Assembly (NCBI GenBank): GCA_035547315.1
Contig: DASZVH010000001.1
Location: 1 to 58,458, forward strand
DNA from: Minisyncoccota bacterium
GTDB lineage: Bacteria > Patescibacteriota > Minisyncoccia > Phycocordibacterales > Phycocordibacteraceae
Direction of reading: 5' to 3'
DNA: 58,458 nucleotides
Positions within the stretch are counted from its first letter, which is position 1; each line of letters begins with the position of its first letter. The notes beneath the pieces are model-generated. The model had not been told where the DNA came from. It did no database searches and saw only the letters and a program-made list of their open reading frames with translations. Positions 30,181 to 32,828 of the stretch are shown here, piece after piece. A program made the translations under genes and the position numbers.

Positions 30181-31662
30181 ATGTCCCGCCCCGCCCCAAG
30201 CGGCTCCTTCCCTGTTCCGCCGGCGGTCGCTGCGGTCGCCCGCACGCTTGCGCAGGCCGGCCATGAGGCCTACTTCGTCGGGGGCTGCGTGCGCGATCTC
30301 CTCATCGGCCGCGAACCCAAAGATTGGGACGTGACCACCAACGCCGACCCGGCGCAGATACAGGCCCTATTCCCCGATTCCTTCTACGAGAACGACTTCG
30401 GCACCGTGGGGGTCAAGACCGGCTCGGGCGACCCGACGACGGAAATCGTAGAGGTGACTCCTTATCGCACCGAGTCGGGCTATAGCGACAAGCGTCGGCC
30501 GGACGCCGTGGCCTTCGGCCATTCGCTCGAGGAGGATCTCGCGCGGCGCGACTTTACCATCAACGCCATCGCCATGGATGTTAAGGGACATATCGTTGAC
30601 CCTTATAAAGGACAAAAGGACATAGAGACAAAGGTCATCCGCGCGGTAGGCGACCCTTTAATCCGATTCGAGGAGGATGCACTGCGGCTTATGCGGGCTG
30701 TCCGCCTGGTGGCGCAACTCGGCTTCGCTCTCGATAGCGAGACGGCGGCCGCGATACAGCAAAAGGCCGCTAATCTAAGCCATATCTCACGGGAGCGGGT
30801 ACGCGACGAGCTCATCCGCATTTTGGAGTCGCAACAGCCGATGACTGCTCTCGTGCTTGCCCAGCAGCTGGGCATTTTGGCATTTATTGCGCCCGATCTT
30901 AGCCGCGGCGTCGGCGTGGAGCAAAATCAGGCCCACAGCTACGACGTCTTCGGCCACCTTATGCGGAGCATGCAGCATGCTGCTGACAAGGGCTGGGACT
31001 TCGACATACGTCTTGCCGCCCTCTTCCACGATGTCTCTAAGCCGGAGACCCGTCGTTGGTCTGATGAAAAGAAGGACTGGACCTTTCATGGGCATGAGGT
31101 AGTCGGTTCACGTGTAACGAAAAAAGCTCTCGAAGACCTTCATTTTTCACGCGAAACAATAGAAAGAGTCGTGAAACTCGTGCGATGGCACATGTTTTTC
31201 TCCGATCCAGACCAGGTGACCCTCTCCGCAGTGCGGCGCGTGATTACCAATGTTGGGAAGGAGAATATCGATGACCTCCTTAAGCTCCGCATCTGCGACC
31301 GCATCGGGACGGGGCGGCCCAAGGAGCAGCCCTTTCGCCTGCGTAAGTACATGGCGATGGTGGATCAGGCGCTCCGCGATCCGATCAGCGTTGGGATGCT
31401 CAAGACTAACGGCAGCCAGATCATGGAGAAGTTCCACGTGCAACCGGGGCCGGTCATCGGCTGGACCTTGAACGCGCTCCTCGAAGAGGTCCTCGATGAC
31501 CCTAAGCGCAATACTCCCGATTATCTCGATAATCGAACAGCCGAGCTGCTCGCGATGCCGCCTGAGGAGCTCAGGACGCTGGGCGAATCCGGCAAGCAAA
31601 AGAGGGAAGAACGCGAGGATCAGGAAGTGCGCGAAATAATGGAGAAGCATCACGTGTGCTAG
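30181..31662 (+). CDS. cca: CCA tRNA nucleotidyltransferase with HD domain
   Basis: VGGCVRDLL, DWD, EEDLARRDFTINA, EDALRLMRAVR, SRERV, HD domain (H.YDV..H, HDVSK, HGHE). Confidence 0.93.
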   Translation: MSRPAPSGSFPVPPAVAAVARTLAQAGHEAYFVGGCVRDLLIGREPKDWDVTTNADPAQIQALFPDSFYENDFGTVGVKTGSGDPTTEIVEVTPYRTESGYSDKRRPDAVAFGHSLEEDLARRDFTINAIAMDVKGHIVDPYKGQKDIETKVIRAVGDPLIRFEEDALRLMRAVRLVAQLGFALDSETAAAIQQKAANLSHISRERVRDELIRILESQQPMTALVLAQQLGILAFIAPDLSRGVGVEQNQAHSYDVFGHLMRSMQHAADKGWDFDIRLAALFHDVSKPETRRWSDEKKDWTFHGHEVVGSRVTKKALEDLHFSRETIERVVKLVRWHMFFSDPDQVTLSAVRRVITNVGKENIDDLLKLRICDRIGTGRPKEQPFRLRKYMAMVDQALRDPISVGMLKTNGSQIMEKFHVQPGPVIGWTLNALLEEVLDDPKRNTPDYLDNRTAELLAMPPEELRTLGESGKQKREEREDQEVREIMEKHHVC

Positions 31663-31721
31663 CCGTAATGGCTAGCACATACCGAGGCAGGCGGGAGATC
31701 AGGTTCCACGCGGAACGAGTA

Positions 31722-31975
31722 AACAAAAAGCCGCCCTATGACTTAGAGGTCGAAGGAGCGGGGCAAATATGATGACCTCTTAGGAGTGGGCGGGCGGCTT
31801 TTAGTTGCACAAAGAGCAGAGCGTTTCGCGTGAACCAGGACCCAAAGGCAGGTTCGTGGATGCGCCACGGCGTTGGCCAGGCCACGGATCAGCTGACTGA
31901 TGAAAGATCGCGCAAAGAACAGCCGAAAGCCAGCTGTCCTTGTGCGAGCTCAAGGTTAGCCAACCTCCTTTGCGT
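31722..31975 (-). ncRNA. Candidate structured small RNA (or small-peptide mRNA)
   Basis: Lies between a predicted promoter (31976-32003) and a terminator-like stem AAAAGCCGCCC/GGGCGGCTTTT. Includes a 13-bp helix (31911-31946) whose wobble pair forms only on the minus strand. Confidence 0.5.
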
Positions 31976-32030
31976 ATTCTAATGTCCTTTATCCTCGTGT
32001 AAAGGACACCCCTGTGGACAATGTCCTTTA
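31976..32030 (-). promoter_or_regulatory. Promoter overlapped by a triple TGTCCTTTA repeat
   Basis: Minus-strand TTTACA-N16-TAGAAT. TGTCCTTTA at 31983-31991 and 32022-32030, inverted TAAAGGACA at 32000-32008. Confidence 0.5.
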
Positions 32031-32828
32031 ATCGAGCGTGAGAGAAACAGGACAGTGGTCGGAGCCCATGAGCTCGGGGTGGATCTCGGCCTTTTTGATC
32101 TTGCGCGCGAGGGCGTGGCTCGCGAAGAGGTAGTCGATGCGCCAGCCCACGTTGCGCTCGCGCGCGTGCTGCCAGTGGGTCCACCAGGTGTAGGCGTCTT
32201 TTTCTTCGGGATGCAGATGCCGGAAGGTGTCAACGAAGCCGGCCTTGATGATCGCTTCTGCGCCCGCGCGCTCCTCTTTGGTGTAGCCGTGCTCGCCCTC
32301 GTTCTCCTTGGGGTGGGCGAGATCGATGGGGGAGCGGGCGACGTTCAAATCCCCGCCGAAGATGACAGGCTTTTCTTCCTCCAGCCGCTTCATGTATTCG
32401 AGGAAGGCCGGATCCCACTGCTTGTGGCGGAGCGCGAGGCGGGAGAGGTCGCCCTTGGAGTTGGGAGTGTAGACCGAGACGGCGAAAAGGTCGCCCAGAT
32501 CGGCCGCGATGACGCGGCCTTCTTCCGCCGGGTTGCCATAGTCGTCGCCCGCGAGCGTATATTTCTCGACTAGATCCGCCGGGAGGCCGAAGCGCACGTC
32601 TTCCGGCGTGCGCTTGGTGAAGACGGCGACGCCGCTGTAGCCCTTCTTATGTTTTGCCGACTCCCAGAACTCCTCATAGGCGGGGAGGTCGAGCGGCGAC
32701 TCGTGCTCCTGCGCCTTCGTCTCCTGCAGGAGGAGAATGTCCGGCTTCAAGGCCTTGAGCATGTGCTCAAAATCGCCCTTCTTGTGCACGGCGCGGATGC
32801 CGTTGACGTTCCAGGAGACGATCCGCAT
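32028..32828 (-). CDS. xth: Exodeoxyribonuclease III / AP endonuclease
   Basis: SWNVNGIRA, LQETK, GYSGVA, EGR, YTPNS, GDLNVA, GWRIDY, SDHCP. Confidence 0.97.
   Translation of the reverse strand: MRIVSWNVNGIRAVHKKGDFEHMLKALKPDILLLQETKAQEHESPLDLPAYEEFWESAKHKKGYSGVAVFTKRTPEDVRFGLPADLVEKYTLAGDDYGNPAEEGRVIAADLGDLFAVSVYTPNSKGDLSRLALRHKQWDPAFLEYMKRLEEEKPVIFGGDLNVARSPIDLAHPKENEGEHGYTKEERAGAEAIIKAGFVDTFRHLHPEEKDAYTWWTHWQHARERNVGWRIDYLFASHALARKIKKAEIHPELMGSDHCPVSLTLD

Follow-up and report, generated by a model that had tools for sequence, protein, structure and literature searches.

Small RNAs of the RsaE/RoxS type in Gram-positive bacteria are stand-alone genes with their own promoter and intrinsic terminator, and a hairpin close to their 3' end displays a C-rich loop motif that is complementary to the G-rich Shine-Dalgarno (SD) sequence. 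Promoters regulated through DnaA boxes are familiar from mioC, nrdAB and dnaA of Escherichia coli and from sda of Bacillus subtilis. The leaders of rRNA operons (rrn) and the lambda nut sites present a boxB hairpin followed by a boxA for NusB-NusE binding, and the chromosomal parS sites of ParABS systems are clustered palindromes. CPR/Patescibacteria account for a large share of bacterial diversity and, to our knowledge, almost no regulatory RNAs are known from them. The RNA gene analyzed here shares with RsaE/RoxS the stand-alone organization and the C-rich 3' loop, but it differs in its length (~250 nt, as opposed to ~100 nt) and multi-branched fold, has no sequence or Rfam similarity to them, and additionally carries boxA-like motifs and a parS site.

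The window (the whole stretch of 58,458 nucleotides that was analyzed) belongs to a genome of 641 kb in 13 contigs, with 64.6% G+C and a completeness of 98.8%, from an ultra-small soil bacterium of the Candidatus Kaiserbacteria / Paceibacteria (Patescibacteria, CPR). DNA runs with the window sequence were soil metagenomes, and no RNA run with the sequence of the RNA gene was found among the sequence runs searched. A gap of 365 bp separates the convergent genes cca (30181-31662, plus strand) and xth (32849-32028, minus strand). It holds a stand-alone, single-copy gene on the minus strand whose predicted product is a structured non-coding RNA of ~250 nt. The predicted transcript comprises the following elements, with P and T denoting hairpins and stems:

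31721 to 31969, minus strand: predicted transcript of ~249 nt, its 5' end placed by the -10 hexamer and its 3' end by the U-tract.
31970-31964, minus strand: AAGGAGG, the SD-like 5' end.
31953 to 31966, minus strand: 5'-proximal hairpin AGGUU-GGCU-AACCU, matching in position a variable hairpin before boxA in relatives.
31911 to 31946, minus strand: 13-bp helix from the fold (31946-31933 with 31923-31911), whose 3' strand is boxA-like motif 1.
31888 to 31901, minus strand: hairpin AUCAG-UCAG-CUGAU from the fold, in a variable region.
31856 to 31876, minus strand: conserved CCAACG followed by hairpin P3, GUGG-CGCAU-CCAC (stem 31868-31856), with compensatory changes.
31832 to 31855, minus strand: hairpin P4, GAACC...GGUUC, from the fold, in a variable region.
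31726 to 31802, minus strand: 3' domain formed by T1, T2 and the apical loop, with compensatory changes in T1 and T2.
31802-31792 with 31736-31726, minus strand: outer stem T1 of 11 bp, the terminator, followed by a U-tract.
31780-31774 with 31751-31745, minus strand: inner stem T2 of 7 bp, enclosed by T1.
31752 to 31773, minus strand: apical loop AUCAUAUUUGCCCCGCUCCUUC of 22 nt, C-rich and anti-SD-like, a candidate seed that contains CUCCUU and is unpaired in the MFE and centroid folds.
31721 to 31725, minus strand: rest of the U-tract after T1.

Folding of the minus strand gave an MFE of -96.4 kcal/mol (z = -3.3), with 1 of 200 shuffles equally good, and the plus strand of the same region gave z = -1.9. 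A sequence-only reading of this DNA had proposed that the minus strand encodes a novel structured RNA, transcribed from a promoter of its own and ended by its own terminator. All of the features it listed were found on that strand where it had placed them, and the proposal itself is borne out by the missing Rfam match and by homologues with compensatory changes. The boxA-like motifs, parS sites, DnaA-type box and TGTCCTTTA promoter boxes described below are new relative to that reading.

When the region was compared with 60 relatives by blastn, just 33 nt were aligned, corresponding to the promoter stretch after the xth stop codon, and homology of the RNA body was therefore recovered by alignment and covariance models (CMs). 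Alignment of ~360 nt downstream of this 33-nt anchor produced conserved blocks split by indels, and a covariance model (R1) was built from the alignment of 17 genus-level sequences. R1 matched positions 31943-31721 of the window (104 bits, E = 2.6e-43). It also matched over its full length at 73 of the 80 Kaiserbacteria-type loci that were collected through Cca similarity (E = 1e-83 to 1e-4), in every case directly after cca and on the other strand. Covariation was counted on a 78-row alignment fitted to the model, which favors the model's structure. On this alignment, P3, T1 and T2 together showed compensatory changes in 17/17 pairs, with 95.5% of cells paired across the 78 sequences. Double-change cells numbered 271 compared to 63 ± 8 in shuffles, and none of 500 shuffles reached 271. 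When the 3' partners were slid by 1-3 columns, 41-56% of cells still paired and the covariation score, 0.556 in register, was at most 0.126. At the level of single helices, P3 was paired in 100% of cells (78 sequences) with compensatory changes in 4/4 pairs (GGGG/CCCC, GAGG/CCUC, GGAG/CUCC, GCGG/CCGC, GUGG/CCAC and others), the 8 pairs of T1 were 97-99% paired with compensatory changes in all, and in T2 (5 pairs) 88% of cells were paired, a single position showing as many as 6 pair types. G-U pairs occur on the strand of the RNA gene and are A-C mismatches on the opposite strand. The search for homologues and covariation invited by the sequence-only reading thus came out in its favor: homologues in 73/80 loci and compensatory changes in all 17 tested pairs are proof that the locus is beyond chance. 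The gene represents an undescribed RNA family of Kaiserbacteria-type Paceibacteria (CPR).

At 30 loci that belong to other families, neither R1 nor a family-level model (R2) detected the RNA body behind the same promoter; homology across the order is thus demonstrated for the promoter alone and not for the body. Compared by eye, these other-family loci contain a unit of similar size that also ends in a terminator and has comparable pyrimidine boxes and parS-like sites, and at ~13 of the 30 the convergent downstream gene shares a C-terminal peptide pattern.

Within the family, the body consists of variable hairpins, the conserved CCAACG, P3 with its conserved loop CGUAU, and a parS-matching site. 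The 3' domain that follows has T1 with the family sequence AAAGCCGCCC/GGGCGGCUUU and a U-tract, and a conserved internal loop with UUUCUC on one side and CCACCA on the other. On the plus strand the terminator hairpin is followed by TTTT, so the same hairpin can, as judged from its sequence, also terminate the convergent cca. A column-wise search of the MAFFT and CM alignments for further helices (P1, P2 and P4) returned nothing reliable because these regions are full of indels. Inspection by eye noted stems comparable to P4 at the same position in relatives and a long-range pairing GCRY/RYGC in their sequences. CCAACG, the P3 loop CGUAU and CACCA, which occurs twice, are unpaired motifs as conserved as the apical loop.

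Coding capacity was considered next to this structure, as the sequence-only reading had offered a type I toxin or other translation-locked mRNA as one of two possibilities. A 50-codon frame starting with TTG is present (31953-31801) with AAGGAGG 10 nt before the start, and the CUCCUU of the apical loop could pair with this 5' end to lock a small-protein or toxin mRNA. Among 12 close homologues, however, start, frame, length and peptide all differ, the matching frame often has no start codon, and conservation follows indel-separated blocks instead of a codon pattern. The purine-rich 5' end is not kept as an SD either, reading AAGGAG, AAGACG, ACAGAG or CCAGAGGC. Sequestration of the 5' SD by the 3' loop found no support in co-variation, with equally stable duplexes at -8.7 kcal/mol for cognate and -8.5 kcal/mol for non-cognate combinations (p = 0.43) in a test that is weak (28 sequences, with 5' ends placed only approximately and loops detected imperfectly); the same 28-sequence test, equally weak, gave no signal for co-variation between the 5' end and boxA. 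Since no ORF is conserved, the toxin or small-protein reading fails, and we regard a locked mRNA as extremely improbable.

Known RNA identities were addressed by homology search. In keeping with the novelty that had been claimed, the Rfam scan (Rfam 15) gave no match in the region at the gathering threshold, and at E <= 10 the sole match was a chance similarity to mir-341 (15 bits, where the gathering score is 90). tmRNA and RNase P RNA were both rejected as identities, being encoded elsewhere in the genome (C4:94176-94593, 72 bits in the Rfam scan, and C4:115824-116187, 115 bits, respectively). ARAGORN missed the tmRNA that Rfam located. A divergent housekeeping RNA missed by the Rfam models, such as a second 6S-type or an SRP RNA, would suit a single-copy, clade-wide gene with a strong promoter, all the more as RF00013 proved insensitive (matches in 5/14 control genomes) and the SRP RNA models RF00169 and RF01854 had no match in 12 genomes of the order. 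The SRP partner proteins, however, are missing as well: PF00448 (Ffh/FtsY, SRP54-type GTPase) was absent from 17 genomes of 7 genera of the order and present in 14/14 controls, a tblastn search for Ffh/FtsY agreed in finding nothing. An SRP RNA would thus be without its protein partner in this lineage, and this identity is excluded. A 6S identity was rejected, as RF00013 had no match at this locus and the RNA folds into several branches, its 3' hairpin standing alone, its 5' and 3' ends not paired with each other and no central bubble present. A weak RF00013 match in a relative (G005) led to a rod-shaped 6S-like RNA with its own promoter and terminator, whose separate homologue in this genome lies at C11:4708-4855. 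A housekeeping RNA in disguise is therefore, in our view, very improbable.

The control region upstream of the RNA gene contains the following elements:

31998 to 32003, minus strand: -35 hexamer TTTACA, from the promoter scan.
31976 to 31981, minus strand: -10 hexamer TAGAAT, from the promoter scan, with a spacer of 16 nt to the -35.
32022 to 32030, minus strand: TAAAGGACA box 1, overlapping the xth stop codon (TAA, 32030-32028) and kept upstream of the RNA gene in relatives.
32013 to 32021, minus strand: DnaA-box-like TTGTCCACA, an 8/9 match to TTATCCACA that starts 40 nt upstream of the -10.
32000 to 32008, minus strand: TGTCCTTTA box 2, overlapping the -35 hexamer.
31983 to 31991, minus strand: TAAAGGACA box 3 within the promoter spacer, inverted here and TGTCCTTTA in most relatives.

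The promoter TTTACA-N16-TAGAAT named in the sequence-only reading was the sole promoter-like match in 31400-32300, compared to 0.3 in shuffles. This simple consensus scan, which a weak promoter could escape, revealed only this minus-strand promoter and none for an antisense partner. Among 72 related loci, TTTACN followed by 15-17 nt and TAnnnT was retained in 67, and two to four TGTCYTTTA/TAAAGGACA boxes lie over or around the promoter, with at least two boxes in 65. Most relatives carry TTATCCACA itself at the position of the DnaA-type box. In the order as a whole, the pattern TTRTCCMCA-N3-5-TGTCCTTTAC was single-copy in 114 of 401 genomes (71 of 223 genera), the reversed-control pattern had 0 matches in the same 401 genomes, and the promoter pattern was not found in 117 genomes from other orders of the class. 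As at the E. coli and B. subtilis promoters introduced above, a (near-)consensus DnaA box, here with no more than one mismatch to TTATCCACA, stands directly upstream of a sigma-70-type -35. The locus differs from them in that the box is combined with three TGTCCTTTA boxes and recurs, spaced alike, at unrelated promoters: at least seven other promoters of the same genome have a TATCCACA-type motif 38-40 nt before a -10-like hexamer. Given this recurrence, the DnaA-type box may serve promoters of the lineage in general as a proximal element, recognized either by DnaA in the role of a transcription factor or by some other protein. Both the DnaA-box function and the operator function of the promoter boxes are putative and assigned by resemblance. 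One candidate for the protein that binds the TGTCCTTTA boxes is encoded by a small wHTH-like ORF on contig C8 (~39.52 kb), which itself has three such boxes in front of it.

Downstream of the promoter, three boxA-like motifs were recognized in the transcript:

31921-31913, minus strand: boxA-like motif 1, UGUUCUUUG, in the 3' strand of the 13-bp helix; family consensus uGUUCUUUg.
31899 to 31909, minus strand: boxA-like motif 2, GAUCUUUCAUC, with GAUCUUUC at 31909-31902; family consensus aGnUCUUUC.
31808 to 31819, minus strand: boxA-like motif 3, CUGCUCUUUGUG, specific to this genome.

Motifs 1 and 2 match the core (GYTCTTT) of the published boxA consensus GYTCTTTAANA (PMC5725501). The motifs of the RNA gene also match the boxA position of the lineage's own 16S leaders, where a hairpin is followed by AUUCUUUUGAC in this genome and by GUUUCUUUGACA or GGUCUUUGACAA in relatives. 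GYTCTTT occurs 1-3 times within the first 190 nt in 65 of 73 RNAs and at least twice in 34, at a density of ~7 per kb compared to 0.30 per kb in the flanks (~25-fold enrichment), and NusB is encoded in the genome (C5:8948-9337). Like an rrn leader or lambda nut site, the gene thus presents a hairpin and then the GYUCUUU core near the 5' end of an untranslated transcript. It departs from both in that the motif is duplicated or triplicated, and from rrn leaders in that a 250-nt RNA with an intrinsic terminator follows instead of an rRNA operon. On this likeness, the boxA-like motifs are putative loading sites for Nus factors.

The same motifs could alternatively be the business end of a protein-binding or decoy RNA, in which boxA copies and single-stranded motifs would titrate or deliver NusB-S10 or another factor, linking Nus-factor availability and rRNA synthesis to the promoter signals without any pairing to mRNA. 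The tandem arrangement, conservation and enrichment of the motifs would fit such a role, as would the presence of NusB, the many conserved unpaired motifs that have no obvious RNA partner, and a genome scan for extended complementarity that found no mRNA target. However, a single 5' boxA is needed by any Nus-loaded transcript, so a decoy role does not follow from its presence, and boxA-like motif 1 is sequestered in the 13-bp helix in this window. We consider a decoy function unlikely.

A further group of elements concerns the DNA itself:

31821 to 31836, no strand: parS-like site GGUUCACGCGAAACGC within the RNA gene, with 2 mismatches to GTTNCACGTGNAAC, forming a short hairpin as RNA.
31703 to 31716, no strand: perfect palindrome GTTCCGCGTGGAAC that resembles parS, lying in the stretch from the cca stop codon to the terminator.
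31105 to 31444, no strand: three parS-like sites in the 3' part of cca (starts 31105, 31144 and 31431), from a pattern scan.

With up to 2 mismatches allowed, GTTNCACGTGNAAC had 8 matches in the 641-kb genome, of which 5 fall within 31105-31836, and ParB is encoded (C3:43744). The RNA gene therefore lies within the genome's only parS (centromere) cluster, and one of its helices is itself parS-like. Among the 73 related loci, 4-10 parS-like sites were found per 3.8 kb, with a site internal to the RNA gene in 52 (family consensus GUUCCACGUGAAAG); relatives without the internal site retain a hairpin there. The sites agree with chromosomal parS of ParABS systems as 14-16-bp palindromes that match GTTNCACGTGNAAC, cluster (5 within 730 bp) and coexist with ParB. 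In contrast to the usual situation, one site is transcribed within a structured RNA and the cluster straddles cca and the RNA gene instead of parB or oriC genes. That the synteny with cca extends further is probably due to the bidirectional terminator that both genes share and to the centromere cluster. A replication origin at this locus was considered but not retained; GC skew in the window is uninformative, and a single DnaA box here compares to a cluster on another contig (C8, ~104.7-105.9 kb).

This setting raises the question of whether the act of transcription outweighs its product, with RNA polymerase driven from a tightly regulated promoter through one parS site and on towards the others to modulate ParB loading or sliding, or to keep the centromere open, and with conservation of the RNA being in part a constraint on the DNA. 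The position in the only parS cluster, the frequent internal site, an encoded ParB and a promoter whose conservation across the order far exceeds that of the RNA body all lend themselves to this explanation. It is countered by P3, T1 and T2, which covary as RNA with G-U pairs that are mismatched on the other strand, by the hairpin that persists where the internal parS is missing, and by the strong terminator, which halts transcription before the next parS site. A primary role for transcription through parS is decidedly unlikely.

Among the unpaired parts of the 3' hairpin, the apical loop is conserved best; it spans 20-26 nt in the family with a conserved CCAUC...GCCCCnGCUCCUUUU and retains the core gCCCcngCuCc while the flanking T2 stem varies. 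A loop held fixed on a stem that is free to vary is the pattern of a base-pairing seed, and the complement of this loop is a G-rich SD. As in C-rich-seed sRNAs, a conserved C-rich motif is thus placed in an unpaired loop, and the exposed loop is the best functional lead. The other possibility offered by the sequence-only reading, an sRNA with an exposed anti-SD loop, holds in part: owing to the conservation of the loop it stays the leading mechanistic idea, but the strict CUCCUU form is restricted to one sub-clade, others having GCCCGCCCCC or GCCCCUUCCCC, so that 'anti-SD' applies in the loose sense of C-rich only. When the genome was scanned for mRNA targets with extended complementarity to the loop, just the gene's own antisense and scattered coding matches were returned.

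Following this reasoning, we tentatively favor a gated, Nus-loaded and parS-embedded trans-acting RNA that uses its C-rich loop, an account to which we would grant somewhat less than an even chance as a whole. DnaA and a TGTCCTTTA-binding repressor would gate transcription from the promoter, the boxA-like motifs would probably load NusB-S10 and other Nus factors so that the untranslated RNA is completed and folded like rRNA, and transcription would end at the long terminator hairpin shared with the convergent cca. The C-rich loop (GCCCCnGCUCC) on its freely varying stem would then pair with G-rich ribosome-binding sites of mRNAs, and this pairing would lower translation of the targets in the manner of RsaE/RoxS-type C-rich seeds. 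The seed function taken by itself we hold to be less likely than not, given that no target was found, the CUCCUU form is sub-clade-specific and several other unpaired motifs are equally conserved.

A broader proposal that we judge to be quite unlikely makes the RNA the effector of a chromosome-cycle module particular to these ultra-small bacteria, in which a promoter controlled by DnaA and the TGTCCTTTA-binding factor would drive a Nus-loaded transcript through a parS site of the centromere cluster, and the RNA would then act on translation, NusB-S10 or ParB. If this were true, the status of replication initiation would be coupled to segregation and ribosome output. The family is small and covaries well, and it could therefore be modeled and deposited at once. 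Kaiserbacteria-type genomes carry the gene almost without exception, its control region surpasses most of the lineage's proteins in conservation, and the gene joins at the sequence level three systems that are normally separate, namely a DnaA box, rRNA-type boxA motifs and parS. If expressed as predicted, the RNA gene would be a test case for the use of Nus factors outside rRNA operons and would offer a handle on how replication, segregation and translation are coordinated in genomes of ~0.6 Mb.

The stretch at 31105-31836 of the window, which spans the 3' part of cca and reaches into the gene for the predicted structured RNA between cca and xth, is the sole parS cluster of the 641 kb genome (G000), with five sites carrying no more than two mismatches to GTTNCACGTGNAAC. 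Across the other 640 kb, the same pattern gave only three parS-like matches, all of them weak. The sites within the cluster are distributed as follows.

Three parS-like sites in the 3' part of cca
One parS-like site between cca and the RNA terminator
One parS-like site within the RNA gene

In the 3' domain of this RNA, the family consensus carries two copies of a CACCA/CCACCA motif, and the window sequence (31773-31737) has diverged from it at both places.

Copy that opens the apical loop
Copy on the 3' side of the internal loop between the outer (T1) and inner (T2) stems

These motifs are reminiscent of tRNA 3' ends. The RNA gene also adjoins the gene for the CCA-adding enzyme.

Boxes of the kind repeated around the RNA gene promoter were observed elsewhere as well. 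On contig C8 (39442-39650), a 43-codon winged-helix-like ORF (MKDISTVVRGVSEKTIQRELASLIGEGVVAREGERRWTLYYLP) has three AAAGGAC(A) boxes upstream of it, and its product could be the autoregulated binder of the TGTCCTTTA boxes. Inside cca (window 30606-30622), two AAAGGACA boxes lie in the codons of the conserved peptide YKGQKDIE, which may reflect coincidence or a dual-use sequence.

Further RNA loci were located in the genome.

C11:4708-4855, plus strand: 6S-like RNA of rod shape, flanked by a TATAAT promoter and a terminator
C4:94176-94593: tmRNA, 72 bits with the Rfam tmRNA model
C8:60770-61074: 16S rRNA leader, with promoter TTGACT-17-TAGGAT, then hairpin CACCUCGAAAGAGGUG, then boxA-like AUUCUUUUGAC

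The 6S-like RNA is homologous to a weak RF00013 match in the relative G005 and was not called at the Rfam gathering threshold. ARAGORN reported no tmRNA over the whole genome and appears to be insensitive for this lineage. At the boxA-like position of the 16S leader, relatives carry GUUUCUUUGACA and GGUCUUUGACAA.

Neither SRP54-family GTPases (Ffh, FtsY; PF00448; G000 and 16 relatives from seven genera of the order) nor SRP RNA (RF00169, RF01854; 12 genomes of the order) were detected, whereas Ffh/FtsY proteins were present in all 14 control genomes. The SRP pathway appears to be wholly absent from the order.

Perfect DnaA boxes (TTATCCACAGAG twice and TAGTGGATAA) cluster at C8:104741-105960, accompanied by an AAGGACA-N8-TGTCCTT palindrome. 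As a possible oriC, this region ranks above the gap between cca and xth. Separately, a DnaA-box-like motif, TATCCACA, recurs in at least seven promoters of the genome, each time with a -10-like hexamer 38-40 nt downstream of it.

C4:29836
C5:6945
C5:18691
C5:19348
C8:39670
C13:3410
Window 32021

Many promoters with this motif have no recognisable -35, and the motif may be a promoter-proximal element typical of the lineage.
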